Both the position numbers and the translations under genes were made by a program. Below the pieces are notes generated by a model. The model worked only from the letters and a program-made list of their open reading frames with translations, was not told the DNA's origin and searched no databases. A stretch of 64,000 nucleotides of DNA from TPA_inf: Saccharomyces (lineage: Eukaryota), in assembly GCA_000146045.2 (NCBI GenBank), contig BK006936.2:384001-448000 (forward strand), read 5' to 3'. Below, one piece after another: positions 57,515 through 63,708 of the stretch (position 1 is the first letter of the stretch; each line of letters begins with the position of its first letter).

Positions 57515-59590
57515 ATGAGCCAGATCGTTGATTTTGTTGAGGACAAAGATTCAAGAAACGATGCCAGTATTCAGATCATCGATGGACCCTCAAATGTTGA
57601 AATTATCGCTCTCTCGGAATCAATGGATCAAGATGAGTGCAAAAGGGCACATGTAAGCTCTGCAGAGATGATTCCATCATCACCGCAAAGAAAATCTGTT
57701 TCGAATGATGTTGAGAATGTTGACCTAAACAAATCTATCGAACTTTCTGCGCCGTTCTTCCAAGATATCAGTATAAGCAAGCTAGATGACTTTTCTACAA
57801 CAGTAAATTCCATCATAGATTCGTCTCTCAGAAATGAGAATAATGCAAAAGGAAACGCGAAAAAACTTTTGGATGATCTAATAAGTGATGAATGGTCAGC
57901 TGATCTTGAGTCGAGTGGAAAGAAGCACAACAAATCACAATACAATTTGAGGGACATCGCAGAGAAATGGGGAGTACAGTCTTTAAAAAATCCAGAGCCT
58001 ATTGCTGTTGACTGCGAATATAAGACACAAGGAATCGGAAAAACCAATAGTGACATTAGTGATAGTCCGAAATCACAGATAGGAGCAGCTGATATACTGT
58101 TCGATTTTCCACTGTCTCCAGTAAAACATGAGAACCCAACTGAAGAAAAGCACAATTCGATTGCTAATGAAAATTCTTCACCAGATAATAGCCTGAAACC
58201 AGCAGGAAAACAAAATCATGGTGAAGATGGGACATCCATGGCAAAAAGGGTATACAATAAAGGTGAAGACGAGCAAGAACACCTTCCGAAAGGAAAGAAG
58301 AGAACCATAGCGTTATCAAGAACACTAATCAACAGCACCAAACTACCTGATACAGTAGAACTAAATCTTTCTAAATTTCTCGATTCCTCAGATAGTATTA
58401 CTACTGATGTACTTTCAACCCCTGCAAAGGGGTCTAACATAGTAAGGACAGGTAGTCAACCAATCTTTAGCAACGCTAATTGTTTTCAGGAAGCAAAACG
58501 CTCGAAAACATTAACGGCTGAGGATCCCAAATGTACTAAAAATACTGCCAGAGAGGTATCACAACTAGAGAATTATATTGCCTATGGGCAATACTATACT
58601 AGAGAAGACTCAAAAAACAAAATACGACACTTGTTAAAAGAAAACAAAAATGCTTTTAAGCGAGTTAACCAGATATATCGAGATAATATAAAAGCACGCT
58701 CTCAAATGATTATAGAGTTTTCGCCTAGCCTTCTCCAGTTATTTAAAAAAGGAGACAGTGATCTGCAACAACAATTGGCACCAGCAGTTGTGCAATCAAG
58801 CTATAACGATTCTATGCCGCTTTTAAGATTTCTTCGAAAATGTGACAGTATTTACGACTTTAGTAACGATTTCTATTACCCCTGTGATCCCAAAATAGTT
58901 GAAGAAAACGTTTTGATTCTATATTATGATGCGCAAGAATTTTTTGAACAATACACTTCACAAAAGAAAGAATTATATAGGAAGATACGATTTTTCTCAA
59001 AGAATGGAAAACATGTGATTCTTATACTAAGCGATATAAATAAACTCAAAAGAGCTATTTTCCAATTAGAAAATGAAAAGTACAAAGCTAGGGTAGAACA
59101 ACGATTGTCAGGAACAGAAGAAGCTTTAAGACCGAGAAGTAAAAAATCAAGCCAAGTTGGAAAATTAGGGATAAAAAAATTTGATTTAGAGCAACGATTG
59201 CGCTTCATTGATAGAGAATGGCATGTCAAAATACATACTGTAAATTCACATATGGAGTTTATTAATTCTCTGCCGAACCTAGTGTCATTAATTGGAAAAC
59301 AGCGCATGGATCCCGCAATTCGGTATATGAAATATGCTCATTTGAATGTAAAATCCGCTCAGGATAGTACAGAAACGCTAAAGAAAACCTTTCATCAGAT
59401 AGGGAGAATGCCTGAAATGAAGGCGAATAATGTCGTGAGCCTATACCCCAGTTTTCAATCATTACTTGAAGATATTGAAAAGGGAAGACTGCAATCAGAC
59501 AACGAAGGTAAATACTTGATGACTGAGGCAGTAGAAAAAAGATTGTACAAACTGTTTACTTGTACTGATCCAAATGATACTATTGAATGA
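57515..59590 (+). CDS. MMS4: Mus81-Mms4 structure-specific endonuclease regulatory subunit, 691 aa
   Basis: 691-aa ORF MSQIVDFVEDKDSRNDASIQIIDGPSNVEIIALSES... (YBR098W). Confidence 0.88.
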   Translation: MSQIVDFVEDKDSRNDASIQIIDGPSNVEIIALSESMDQDECKRAHVSSAEMIPSSPQRKSVSNDVENVDLNKSIELSAPFFQDISISKLDDFSTTVNSIIDSSLRNENNAKGNAKKLLDDLISDEWSADLESSGKKHNKSQYNLRDIAEKWGVQSLKNPEPIAVDCEYKTQGIGKTNSDISDSPKSQIGAADILFDFPLSPVKHENPTEEKHNSIANENSSPDNSLKPAGKQNHGEDGTSMAKRVYNKGEDEQEHLPKGKKRTIALSRTLINSTKLPDTVELNLSKFLDSSDSITTDVLSTPAKGSNIVRTGSQPIFSNANCFQEAKRSKTLTAEDPKCTKNTAREVSQLENYIAYGQYYTREDSKNKIRHLLKENKNAFKRVNQIYRDNIKARSQMIIEFSPSLLQLFKKGDSDLQQQLAPAVVQSSYNDSMPLLRFLRKCDSIYDFSNDFYYPCDPKIVEENVLILYYDAQEFFEQYTSQKKELYRKIRFFSKNGKHVILILSDINKLKRAIFQLENEKYKARVEQRLSGTEEALRPRSKKSSQVGKLGIKKFDLEQRLRFIDREWHVKIHTVNSHMEFINSLPNLVSLIGKQRMDPAIRYMKYAHLNVKSAQDSTETLKKTFHQIGRMPEMKANNVVSLYPSFQSLLEDIEKGRLQSDNEGKYLMTEAVEKRLYKLFTCTDPNDTIE

Positions 59591-59656
59591 TGATCGAACG
59601 AAACTTTGTATATAAGAACATACCTTAAGGCAGTCGTTTTGAAAATCACTGCAGCT

Positions 59657-59705
59657 CTATTTCCCCCTCCTTACCTTTTTAATGAATTCCATTTTACAGA
59701 AAGTA
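59657..59705 (-). CDS. FES1: FES1 alternative terminal exon (Fes1L tail NTFCKMEFIKKVRRGK, includes stop)
   Basis: 5' splice site AA|GTATGT at 59833; 3' splice site CAATAG ending at 59706. Exon 2 reads T ACT TTC TGT AAA ATG GAA TTC ATT AAA AAG GTA AGG AGG GGG AAA TAG, replacing KYVL with a basic tail. Confidence 0.6.
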
Positions 59706-59820
59706 CTATTGATAAATATTCGTAATAAAATAAAACAGTGTTAATAATAAATGTTCGAGATTCCGGTTAAAGATAATATGAAATGGTGAATGTAATATCA
59801 TTTTATTTCTACGGACGTAA

Positions 59821-60693
59821 TCATAATACATACTTTACGGCTAAATAATCGTCTTCATTAAGTCTGTCCTTTAGAGGCTCGATATGTTTGTAACCTTCGT
59901 TCAATTTGTGCAATTCCTGTTCATTAAATTTTATTCCGGAAGATATCAGGTGAGAGAGAAAAGACAGAACTCTATCTATGATGTTCAAGTTACTCTCGTC
60001 AGACAAGCACTCAATCGTACTTTCAATTACTCCATCCTTTCTCAGCACACTGATTATATTTTCATCAATCTTAACAGATGACAAATATGCGGTCAATAAG
60101 GCAATGGCTCTCATTTTCAGTTTTGGTTTGGCGGTGTTATCACTTAATACAGGTGCTATGCAGTCGAGCCCATTTAATTTGAAAAACTTTTCTGAGATAT
60201 CTTTGTGGTTTCTTATTAGATTAGATAGTGCGTAAAAAGCTTTTGTTCTCACGTCGAGTGGCTTTGTCTTGTCACTAGCTATTTCGATAAGGCTTCGCAG
60301 ACCATTGTCGTATTTCATGAAATTATTTTGCGAATCCAAGTTGTTTTGCACAGCCGTTCCAATAATGGATAAAGCAGCAGCACGTAGTTCTTCATCCTTC
60401 GTCTGAACAAGAACATCCAACAATGGCTCCCACAGTTTTAAATTTTCGATATTATTAGCATTATCTAAGTTCTCAATCAACATTTCAAAGTTGTCAAATG
60501 CAACGAGTTTTGTTTCTAAGTCAACCTCCGGATTCATAATAACAGCCATGGATTCTTTCATTAAGGTTGGATCGTCAGGACCACCACCACCGAATAACTG
60601 CTGTAGCAATTTAGGATCAGGTTGGCCGGCCCTAGCCATAGCTTCTTTGTCCCCTTGAGAATTCGCAATAGACCACTGTAATAGCTTTTCCAT
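59821..60693 (-). CDS. FES1: Hsp70 nucleotide exchange factor (armadillo-repeat), short isoform Fes1S, 290 aa
   Basis: MEKLLQWSIANSQGDKEAMARAGQPDPKLLQQLFGGGG... with armadillo repeats. The stop TGA at 59823..59821 lies inside an unspliced GTATGT. Confidence 0.92.
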   Translation of the reverse strand: MEKLLQWSIANSQGDKEAMARAGQPDPKLLQQLFGGGGPDDPTLMKESMAVIMNPEVDLETKLVAFDNFEMLIENLDNANNIENLKLWEPLLDVLVQTKDEELRAAALSIIGTAVQNNLDSQNNFMKYDNGLRSLIEIASDKTKPLDVRTKAFYALSNLIRNHKDISEKFFKLNGLDCIAPVLSDNTAKPKLKMRAIALLTAYLSSVKIDENIISVLRKDGVIESTIECLSDESNLNIIDRVLSFLSHLISSGIKFNEQELHKLNEGYKHIEPLKDRLNEDDYLAVKYVL

Positions 60694-61061
60694 AGTTATG
60701 TATGTGTTTTTTTTTCTATTTTACTCTTTCGTTGAAAGGTAATGGCTTTCTGACTGACGATGAGTGCTCTTTTAGATATAGCCAATCGCTGGTTTATAAG
60801 CAAATTTCTGTCAGCGCGAGATGCCTTCCTCTTTTCTAACCTCCAAAAAACTTCCAGAAGATTCCAGTCCAAGAGGTATATCATTTCAAACGAATAAGCT
60901 GATTACAACCTTAATAGGGCCCAACTTGACCAACCAGTAGCTGAAAAGCTTACCTACAAAATAGGAAATAGGTTAGTACACTGTCGACAGCAGTGGTATA
61001 AGTATATACCCTACCTACACATCATATATATTGAAGTGAGGTTTATTTTCTGTGATCTTGT

Positions 61062-63323
61062 TTAGCGAATTTTATCACTGTTCTTTTTGATAAACTCGTC
61101 CAATTTGTAGACAAAATCCAAACCTACGGCCTTCAATCCATCTATCTGTTTTCTGGATGACTTAATGGACCCTGGGGATAACATTTCATCATTCAGTAAT
61201 TGCTTGTCTATCAATTTGAAGTGATTATCCACTTCGTCGCTACACCAATCTACTAGGATGGAAGAAATCTTAGCCCCGAGTTCTTTGAAAATATCCTGGA
61301 AGTCCTCCACTGTTTTTTTAATGGTTTGGAACCTGATAACAGCCAATTGAGTCAAATAGTTCGTAGGATTGTCCACTGATCCAATCTGTAGAATCAAATC
61401 TTGAATGAAATTAGATCTATTCTGTAAGAATAGGTCAAGAGCTTGCTCTGGTAATCCTAACTTAATCATATTTTCAGTACCGCTTTTCAAATGCACTATT
61501 TCATTCGATGATAAAATGCTCTGAGAAAGTTTGCTAGAAATGGCCTCTCTTCTTTGTTCGATTTTTAAAGATATCAGGTTAAGTAACATTAACTCTTCAT
61601 CAGAAATTCTTTCAGAAAGATCCTCCAATTGTGATTCAATATCCAATAATGTTTCCACGGCACTTTCAAACCTAAGCCTAGCTAATTCAATATCTATCTC
61701 TTCCACGCCTTCATCCAGGAATTTAAGCCTCTGGGCGGTTGAACTCATATCTCTGGACCTTGGCCTCGAATGCATTGATAGAGTTAGGTTCTGCAAAAGA
61801 TATTGATCCATTGCGCCTGTTACATTTCGGCCAGGAGTGATTGAACCCCCCATACTACGTCTTTTGTTTTTGTTAGGGCTTCTGTTGTTTTCTCTACCTG
61901 GGGTTTGTTGCGTAGATTGCAAATATCTAAAGGACTCTCTAATACGTTTAGAGTTCTCCTCTTCTACATGGAATATGTCGCACAAATCATCCTTAGCCTT
62001 TCTTATAACGTCCAACAACCTAGAGCATTCGTCTGCGTCTCTACATTCATACAAACTTGAATTCGAATTGCTAAACTTGAAAAGTAGCCTCTTAGTGGAA
62101 AATTCCTCTTGCGTGACAGTGACATCCTTTAAAGGATAGCACTGGCTTACTATAAAGTCATTTTGCTTATCTCTTGATTTATCGGCGATAAGTACCAAAT
62201 CATTCAAAATGAAAATCTGTACCATCTGCAAGGGTTTACCAGTGGTAGTATTTAATTCCATCCAATTGGCACTATTCATTAAAATATGTCTTCCTTTCGT
62301 AGAATTGATAAACTTCTGAGCACCTTCAACGTTCTTAAACAGCTGATCCAGTTCCGTATCCCAAAATTTCTCTAATATCAAGACGCTCGATCTGTCCCTC
62401 CTCATGAGATTCCCATTTTGTCCTGCTTTCAAAGGCGGAAGTAACGCTGGACTATTAGAATGACTTTCAACATTGTTAAAATTGCCTTGTCTCTCTTGAT
62501 CTATTTGATCCTGCAATTGTAACCTTTTTTCAGCTATTTTGGTGCACTGATCCAAAACCTCGTTTAAATCATTTATATTTGCTCTAACCCTTTTAAGCTC
62601 CAACATAGCAACATTTAGGTCGTTGTTTACCGTCATGATTTCGTTATATGATTTATTGATATTTAACTTTACTTCTTCTTGGACCTGTATCGATAAATCT
62701 GTTAAATTTGAGGTAAATTTATCAATAGTAATGGCACTCGCATTGCCTAGTTTATCATGAACAAAATCTTTAGCATTAAAATGCGGGTTTGCCAACATCT
62801 TTCTTAGCGACGTGCTATTATTGAAAGGATCATTACTGCCGGAAGGATTGACAGTATTTCGCATTGCTGATCTAGCAGGCACCTTATTATAGGAGCTGTC
62901 GTTCAGGGAGAGATCGGCAGTTGAAAGATTTAAACTGTTGGAAGGGCCTTTAGAGCTTACCGATTCGTTCTCAGTGGTGAAACTACTATTATTATGACTA
63001 CTATCCACATTATCATTGGGAACTATCATGTTTGGCATATCAGGTAGGGGCATTGAGTAATCTAGTGTAGGTGGAGCATAATTTGTATTATGAATTGATA
63101 GTCTTCTCTGCATTGAAGTTGCTACCCTACTTCTCTCCCTTGCATTGATTGTTGGTAGCGTATAACTGGTAGCCGGATCCTTGAGATCACTATAAGGGTT
63201 CTTTTTTGTTTTTTGTTTAGGCTTAGCAGGCGATGGAGGTGTCTTTTGCTTAGCAGGAGAGCTTGCAGACTTCTTTACATGCTTCCAATTGTTTCTGGCC
63301 TTCTTCAAAGAAAACTCAACCAT
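61062..63323 (-). CDS. EXO84: Exocyst complex subunit, 753 aa
   Basis: True ATG at 63323 ([18 protein letters not shown]...). The ORF-track start at 63329 is a GTG. It has a coiled-coil and a PH-like region (YBR102C). Confidence 0.9.
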
Positions 63324-63708
63324 TTTCACAGTACAAATATTTCAACTTTCAGTCTCTTACCTGGTCTAATATGAAGGCTTTTTGTTCATTCGGCTTTGCT
63401 CAAGGTCTTACAAATATACTATTAACTGCAGTCTCTAGTCTCTTTTTCCAGTCATCTATTTTCATGGAGCGGAACTTAGCAAACGAGAAATAAACAAAAA
63501 TGATTAGGAATGTATTCATGTTGAAAAGGTTATGAGATATGCAAGACCATTCGTTTTGATTTGCAATTAGTGAGAACAATTTAAACACCTTGGTGCGAAA
63601 TTGAAGGTTTTTTTTTCCAAAGAAGTGTACAGCCCACACTAACAACTGCTAACTCAGATAAAAATAACAGAAACAAAAAAAAGGTAGGGAAGGCCCATCA
63701 CACGGAAA

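Follow-up and report, generated by a model that had tools for sequence, protein, structure and literature searches.

At the 3' end of FES1 in Saccharomyces cerevisiae, the same few nucleotides can be read as the last codons of a protein or as the beginning of an intron, and the locus raises the question of which reading the cell uses, whether it uses both, and what the second protein would be. [quoted passage not shown] The gene and its promoter element are placed as follows.

59821..60693, minus strand: FES1 open reading frame (290 aa), from the program's open reading frame list and translation
60852..60864, minus strand: heat-shock element GAAtcTTCtgGAA in the FES1 promoter, from a pattern scan

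The product of this reading frame matches S. cerevisiae Fes1 (P0001) at 100% identity. A Pfam search detected the Fes1 N-terminal domain (PF08609, E = 1.7e-26, exceeding the curated cut-off), as well as weak ARM-type matches, and no PDB chain matched Fes1 by sequence at E <= 1e-5. The gene is preceded by EXO84 and followed by a convergent ERCC4/MMS4-like gene. The heat-shock element recurs upstream of the gene in both S. kudriavzevii and S. uvarum, and the FES1 promoter has been described as carrying a canonical element bound by Hsf1 (Gowda 2016, PMC4831876).

The reading frame closes with GCC GTA AAG TAT GTA TTA TGA, giving a protein that ends in LAVKYVL. A splice donor begins at the last base of the AAG codon, and the following elements can be laid out from this point.

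59834..60693, minus strand: exon I, shared by the two isoforms and running from ATG to the AA of the split codon; placed by sequence, Pfam and identity to Fes1
59706..59833, minus strand: alternative intron of 128 nt; sequence reading, identical to the published intron
59828..59833, minus strand: 5' splice site GTATGT; junction AA|G within a Lys codon, phase 2
59740..59746, minus strand: candidate branch box TATTAAC with the branch A at 59741, one mismatch to TACTAAC (C3 to U)
59706..59708, minus strand: 3' splice site TAG (CAATAG), the first AG past the branch box
59657..59705, minus strand: exon II, T plus 15 codons plus TAG, encoding the Fes1L-specific tail NTFCKMEFIKKVRRGK; spliced translation
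59660..59680, minus strand: codons of KKVRRGK, a basic cluster acting as NLS; found as K-[KR]-x-[KR] (KKVR), function from Gowda 2016
59609..59614, minus strand: TATATA efficiency-element consensus from a pattern scan, 43 nt past the Fes1L stop and about 20 nt from the MMS4-like stop

When the intron is retained, its first 13 nt (59821..59833, G-TAT-GTA-TTA-TGA) supply the end of the short isoform, Fes1S, namely KYVL and the stop codon. When it is removed, AA is joined to T and the frame reads through NTFCKMEFIKKVRRGK to a TAG stop at 59659..59657, giving a product of 302 aa, the long isoform Fes1L. The TATATA string beyond this stop may be the signal that specifies the distal poly(A) site.

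Most of this layout had been proposed by a first-pass annotation made from the letters alone, and on re-reading the sequence its coordinates for the reading frame, donor, intron, acceptor and exon II were all recovered, together with the TATTAAC sequence upstream of the acceptor, present at 59746..59740. Three of its details have to be corrected. The donor G precedes the initial T of the stop codon by 10 nt and not by 8 nt; the stop codon is not inside the 5' splice site, being located 4 nt past the GTATGT hexamer, within the intron; and the change of GTATGT to GTCTGT, put forward as synonymous for Fes1S, turns TAT (Tyr) into TCT (Ser). A synonymous change that destroys the donor G1 is AAG to AAA.

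At least four papers have described the alternative terminal intron of FES1, which is thereby well characterised. For YBR101C, a new intron that takes in the stop codon has been reported on the minus strand at chrII 443706..443833 (128 nt), supported by 200 junction reads and PCR validation and leading to the tail TFCKMEFIKKVRRGK (Schreiber 2015, PMC4607428). Adding 384000 to 59706..59833 gives exactly these coordinates, so that the predicted 128-nt intron ending in CAATAG agrees with the published one base for base, and reads across 59834/59705, the result on which the first-pass annotation had staked its own proposal, were thus in print beforehand. A dedicated study described the 128-bp intron with its GTATGT and TAG sites and a branch element, named the TAG as the 3' splice site, and obtained an RT-PCR product smaller by 128 bp whose junction was sequenced (Gowda 2016). 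In the same work Fes1S was characterised as a cytosolic protein of 290 aa and 32.6 kDa, and Fes1L as a nuclear-enriched protein of 302 aa and about 34.1 kDa with 16 residues of its own, which bears out the suggested match to the reported isoforms; masses computed from the two frames (32.6 kDa for Fes1S and 34.07 kDa for Fes1L) agree with these values. The replacement of KYVL by the basic tail through splicing, also foreseen from the sequence, agrees with both studies. An HA tag placed on exon II shifted Fes1L only, deletion of mud2 or prp18 lowered Fes1L, and changing five basic tail residues to Glu left Fes1L-GFP cytosolic, with its nuclear enrichment abolished (Gowda 2016). A later study again reported this intron of 128 nt, along with the proximal poly(A) site, and found the ratio of the isoforms to depend on the speed of RNA polymerase II (Aslanzadeh 2018, PMC5793784). 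The event has also been confirmed by RNA-seq (Hurtig 2020, PMC7491326).

A trace of the spliced molecule was also found in a public assembled contig. The tail profile was searched against a set of 5.8 billion proteins, in which the word index limited the outcome to a single candidate, a 55-aa protein from an ENA assembly (P0121) identical to the spliced Fes1L C-terminus. The contig that encodes it, L004, matches the window in three blocks (60729-59809, 59936-59834 and 59705-59004). The first block ends exactly at 59809, the published poly(A) site, and the second and third are directly joined, reproducing the exact 59834|59705 junction. This concatenation looks like the work of an assembler that fused a short and a spliced transcript at a 9-nt microhomology.

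The poly(A) site at which the first block ends is the element around which the choice between the isoforms turns.

59809..59811, minus strand: proximal cleavage and poly(A) site T-A-G inside the intron, position from Gowda 2016

This site lies 10-12 nt past the Fes1S stop and 24 nt past the donor, and most FES1 transcripts have been reported to be polyadenylated 11 bp past the reading frame, equal to 24 bp past the donor; a T-to-C mutation at the site increased Fes1L (Gowda 2016), and the T at 59811 is consistent with that mutant. The poly(A) signals visible in the sequence are weak, comprising a UAUGUA at 59832..59827 and an AATAAA at 59807..59802. The first-pass annotation missed the intronic poly(A) site, the actual switch competing with splicing.

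These elements and the published work give the following course of events. Transcription of FES1 is driven by the heat-shock element at 60864..60852. The majority of transcripts are cleaved and polyadenylated about 24 nt past the donor, within the intron, yielding the cytosolic Fes1S that ends in KYVL. A minority extend beyond the proximal poly(A) site, allowing the spliceosome to excise 59833..59706; the joined AA and T then form an Asn codon, followed by 15 further codons, to give Fes1L (302 aa). KKVRRGK acts as a monopartite NLS that concentrates Fes1L in the nucleus, and the ratio of Fes1S to Fes1L is set by the competition between intronic polyadenylation and splicing. Experiments in the literature have established the junction, both proteins, the need for Mud2 and Prp18, the consequence of mutating the poly(A) site and the function of the NLS, and the poly(A) site and its competition with splicing have been demonstrated in two studies (Gowda 2016; Aslanzadeh 2018). 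The branch point is one that we infer.

To assess conservation, the window was aligned with its orthologous regions in S. kudriavzevii and S. uvarum. Across the three Saccharomyces species the donor, TATTAAC and the acceptor are invariant in 100% of columns and exon II in 70%, while the intron interior is invariant in 35-43% and the region past the Fes1L stop in 28%. In exon II, variation affects 11 of 16 third codon positions, compared with 3 of the 30 that are first or second in their codon (Fisher p = 8e-5), and NTFCKMEFIK followed by a basic cluster is encoded in all three species. Judged from the alignment, this pattern is the signature of a translated exon II flanked by selected splice signals.

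Nine further yeast loci were then considered, making eleven other yeasts in all, and in each of the eleven (11/11) a donor interrupts the corresponding codon in an unchanged phase, and a homologous tail follows. In the nine, a branch box, an acceptor and a tail in frame could be read behind the donor, as follows.

N. castellii: donor GTATGT, branch box TATTAAC, tail NTFCKMQFIKRMRMSK
Z. rouxii: donor GTATGT, branch box TATTAAC, tail NTYYSVTFFKRHKQQQ
K. marxianus: donor GTATGT, branch box AACTAAC, tail HTYNNQLGHKRTRY
L. thermotolerans: donor GCATGT, branch box TATTAAC, tail KTFYKMHFLIPTKQRHD
Saccharomycodes ludwigii: donor GCAAGT, branch box TACTAAC, tail NTYYKMVFIKRHRF
Pachysolen tannophilus: donor GCAAGT, branch box TACTAAC, tail KSFSKVQYVKKLHSESKSKR
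Babjeviella inositovora: donor GCAAGT, branch box AACTAAC, tail KTFCKVAYIKLQHSK
Komagataella phaffii: donor GCAAGT, branch box AACTAAC, tail NTFVKVEHIKQFKRSKKK
Ogataea philodendri: donor GTCAGT, branch box AACTAAC, tail KTYMKVEYLRGLSKK

The Komagataella intron is 61 nt long and its tail is annotated as spliced in that way in protein P0102; homologous spliced tails are annotated in four database proteins. Splicing of the Ogataea philodendri unit is doubtful, since the unit measures just 34 nt. Homologous Fes1L tails were collected from 14 other sequences, with the first ten or eleven residues aligning without gaps. The best-kept part is x-T-[FY]-x-K-x-x-[FY]-[IL]-K and not the basic cluster, and this motif can be traced from Saccharomyces as far as Komagataella, Pachysolen and Babjeviella. 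The strict pattern K-[KR]-x-[KR] occurs in 11 of 15 tails and is missing in L. thermotolerans, Pachysolen, O. philodendri and Babjeviella.

The origin of the FES1 intron was at first placed within the Saccharomycetaceae (Gowda 2016), a dating superseded when FES1 intron retention at the same position was reported in eight other species out to O. polymorpha, more than 304 MYA (Hurtig 2020). The cross-species reading presented here reproduces the latter conclusion and does not extend it; the lineages it adds (Komagataella, Pachysolen, Babjeviella and Saccharomycodes, with suggested GC-type donors) are small increments to that work. An exhaustive profile search retrieved one further tail-bearing protein, P0145 (ending in TMFLKVESIKRK), whose best named relative is Babjeviella (49% over 64% of the query), and no more annotated long forms were present among its relatives. 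A deeper origin by way of P0145 was considered and set aside: the protein is without a close named relative and leaves the origin unmoved.

A functional interpretation of this conservation has to be weighed against the view that the intron is truly spliced and Fes1L is a tolerated by-product, the unit being kept for regulation, either of FES1 3'-end choice and expression or by limiting transcription into MMS4. Several observations agree with it. Cells lacking Fes1L behaved as wild type in the published assays (Gowda 2016), and it has been argued that the NLS is perhaps not critical, since three species have lost exon II and duplicate genes have in no case taken its place (Hurtig 2020). The spacing is also tight, with just 66 nt between the Fes1L stop and that of the convergent MMS4-like reading frame (59590), and the convergent order of the two genes is retained in 12 of 12 loci. 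Nonetheless, exon II evolves as a coding sequence, varying at third codon positions; its tail motif is recognisable as far as Komagataella, Pachysolen and Babjeviella, where a purely regulatory intron would need none; and the Fes1L tail is a working NLS (Gowda 2016). Fes1L as a mere by-product is therefore considered very unlikely, and a translated, nuclear-directed isoform remains the preferred reading.

The sites used in splicing can be questioned separately, as splicing might be real and the branch point or acceptor other than those proposed. The branch box departs from the consensus, and neither a branch-point sequence nor its mapping was found for FES1 in the main texts of Gowda 2016 and Hurtig 2020; FES1 is also absent from the main text of Gould 2016, consulted for branch-point mapping. 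The position of the acceptor, on the other hand, follows from the published coordinates and from the intron length of 128 nt, and a scan of the sequence between 59790 and 59707 detected no other AG. TATTAAC at 59746..59740 is probably the branch point because it is the only branch-like heptamer that the scan reported 3' of the donor, is invariant in Saccharomyces, and recurs identically in three remoter genera; its branch A would lie 35 nt from the acceptor G. A different choice of sites appears very unlikely. With the proposed sites retained, the mismatch in the branch box and the closeness of the poly(A) site may jointly account for a low splicing efficiency.

The splice motifs have also been compared with chance expectation. 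The window contains 30 GTATGT sites on both strands, 18 of which are followed by a one-mismatch branch box and then YAG, while mononucleotide shuffles of the window gave about 42 GTATGT sites and 23 +/- 4 complete units. No enrichment of the combined motif was therefore detected in the window (18 observed versus 23 +/- 4 shuffled), and since such units occur at chance level, the sequence signals by themselves are no evidence of splicing. The support above chance comes from conservation, in the invariant signals and the third-position bias of exon II, and from the published RNA evidence. Commonplace as GTATGT with a relaxed branch box and YAG is in this AT-rich window, at or below the shuffled expectation, the notion that the motifs are fortuitous, that only the 290-aa Fes1 is made and that any longer form arises by stop-codon readthrough or frameshifting has a negligible likelihood against the published junction reads, PCR and sequenced RT-PCR product, the selective conservation of the splice signals, the exact junction in the contig, and the fact that readthrough of the TGA meets the next stop three codons on, after LRP.

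Other arrangements in the vicinity were examined and rejected. A TACTAAC with a pyrimidine tract and a TAG at 60978..60955 has no donor-like hexamer upstream and is unconserved in S. kudriavzevii and S. uvarum; a GTATGT at 59623 is likewise unconserved in these two species. Both are taken as chance occurrences. An ancient tandem duplication of the end of exon I was considered as the source of the intron and exon II, and was discarded, as the 42 identities among 128 positions in the proposed register are equalled or exceeded in 95 of 700 alternative registers. The idea of a duplication had come from equal 103-nt pieces in contig L004.

Two further features of the donor and the best-kept part of the tail are leads rather than findings. 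It is a tentative and rather doubtful proposal that the GTATGT donor doubles as a poly(A) efficiency element and that it goes back to a weak ancestral donor of GC type that was later upgraded. For the first part, GUAUGUA at the donor contains UAUGUA, one base off the Hrp1-binding efficiency element UAUAUA; this string stands 16-23 nt before the point of proximal cleavage, with a UAG ahead of it. The combination TAG...TATGTA is an old 3'-end signal. In UAUAUA the central positions are the least sensitive to mutation, and at position 4 a G is better than a U (Savinov 2021). U1 snRNP and Hrp1/CF I may therefore compete for the same nucleotides of the FES1 donor, and FES1 would then be, if this is true, a naturally occurring example in yeast of a proximal poly(A) site suppressed in a U1-dependent manner. 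The main text of Gowda 2016 holds no discussion of this overlap. Against a general role of UAUGUA, S. kudriavzevii has GTATGTG and the species with GC donors are without the UAUGUA string.

As for the second part, the homologous junction outside the Saccharomycetaceae, and in L. thermotolerans, reads GCAAGT or GCATGT, so that the introns would belong to the GC-AG type; GCAAGT is precisely the donor chosen in the Komagataella annotation. The ancestral donor may have been of a weak GC type imposed by a K-Q-V coding sequence, and may have been upgraded to GU in the Saccharomyces lineage with a change of Gln to Tyr. In the main text of Hurtig 2020, GcAaGU is mentioned for SRC1 only.

A reading of raw sequence alone has thus recovered, with exact coordinates, a rare functional alternative splicing event in yeast. 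As the FES1 event was already in the literature with functional follow-up, the result carries no weight as a discovery, and what is left as new is the proposed branch point, a donor that may coincide with a poly(A) element, and the suggested GC-type donors of other lineages.

When set beside known systems, the feature is identical to the published FES1 system in its locus, its 128-nt intron to the base, its tail, its isoform sizes and its mechanism. PTC7 is, like FES1, a rare yeast case in which spliced and unspliced mRNAs give functional proteins in different compartments (cited in Gowda 2016 and Hurtig 2020); it differs in having an internal, in-frame intron through which the ribosome reads when it is retained. 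SRC1 also represents conserved yeast alternative splicing with weak donors, including GcAaGU (Hurtig 2020). The same GC-type hexamer occurs at the FES1 junction of Komagataella, Pachysolen, Babjeviella and Saccharomycodes, but SRC1 picks between two donors 4 nt apart in one intron and does so without poly(A) competition. Animals have composite terminal exons with intronic polyadenylation, an example being the switch between secreted and membrane immunoglobulin mu. There, a donor close to the end of a terminal coding exon is in competition with a poly(A) site a short way 3' of it; polyadenylation at that site yields a short C-terminus, and splicing yields an alternative C-terminus and another localisation. 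FES1 differs in relying on yeast CPF-CF and an intron-definition spliceosome, as well as in the far smaller size of its alternative part (16 aa), and the likeness between the two systems is one of logic and not of homology.

The exact FES1 exon I/exon II junction is carried by a public contig (L004; ENA ERZ21852962 NODE_4915, 1727 nt) matching the window between 60729 and 59004, as its block 59936..59834 adjoins its block 59705..59004. Three blocks make up this contig, with FES1 mRNA to 59809, the published poly(A) site, placed first, followed by the two adjoining blocks. The concatenation is odd. The exon I insert and the intron piece replaced are both 103 nt long, with a GGAATAAAAT/GAAATAAAAT microhomology detected at the start of each. 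The contig is probably an assembly artefact originating from RNA-derived reads; less probably, it represents an engineered allele or a retro-copy.

In the Saccharomyces lineage, the FES1 junction has a GTATGT donor, which codes for K-Y-V. Different hexamers were read in five other yeasts, at L001 3349..3409 and at the homologous Lys codon of loci L008, L009, L010 and L012:

AA/GCAAGT, donor at the homologous Lys codon of the FES1 junction in Komagataella, Saccharomycodes, Pachysolen and Babjeviella
AA/GCATGT, donor at the same codon in L. thermotolerans

Judging from sequence, these donors would be of the GC-AG type and would be forced by the coding sequence, K-Q-V or K-H-V. A tally of Fes1 C-termini gave 40 with KYV and 25 with KQV.

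Alignment of the exon II segment 59705..59660 with the homologous tails (A4) revealed that the best-conserved part of this exon is x-T-[FY]-x-K-x-x-[FY]-[IL]-K, rather than the basic cluster, and a strict K-[KR]-x-[KR] is missing from the tails of L. thermotolerans, Pachysolen, O. philodendri and Babjeviella. The Fes1L tail may do more than act as a simple monopartite nuclear localisation signal. In Ogataea philodendri, the homologous intron-like unit (GTCAGT...AACTAAC...CCAG, L011 2354..2387) comprises only 34 nt and is followed by a recognisable tail, KTYMKVEYLRGLSKK. Yeast introns are not known to be this short, and splicing of the unit is therefore doubtful. A homologous tail (...TMFLKVESIKRK) is also included in the annotated P0145, a divergent Fes1 of 275 aa from Logan assemblies, with 37-41% identity to named Fes1 proteins over most of its length; no close named relative was detected for it, the best being Babjeviella (49% over 64% of the query).

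On either side of FES1, the following genes were listed:

57515..59590, plus strand, ERCC4/MMS4-like ORF, convergent with FES1 (Fes1L stop ending at 59657, minus strand)
61062..63329, minus strand, EXO84 in a mechanical ORF list, with a GTG start (755 aa, MKMVEF...)

EXO84 presumably begins in reality at an ATG, two codons past the listed GTG. Only 66 nt separate the stops of Fes1L and the convergent ORF, so the Fes1L mRNA must end over the MMS4 3' end. This convergence is retained in all 11 other species examined, Komagataella and Pachysolen included (L001-L003, L005-L012).

Other splice-like strings occur in the window:

60978..60955, minus strand, perfect TACTAAC, then a pyrimidine tract and TAG (GTACTAACCTATTTCCTATTTTGTAG), in the EXO84-FES1 intergenic region
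59623..59618, minus strand, second GTATGT, 34 nt past the Fes1L stop
donor 9181, plus strand, GTATGT-TACTAAC-YAG unit of 330 nt
donor 42873, minus strand, GTATGT-TACTAAC-YAG unit of 357 nt
donor 23122, minus strand, GTATGT-TACTAAC-YAG unit of 95 nt

S. kudriavzevii and S. uvarum conserve neither of the first two, no donor-like hexamer lies upstream of the TACTAAC string, and both strings probably reflect chance. At the remaining three donors, GTATGT is followed by a perfect TACTAAC and YAG; with a chromosome II offset of 384000, these units probably correspond to annotated introns in ECM33, YBR090C and UBC4.
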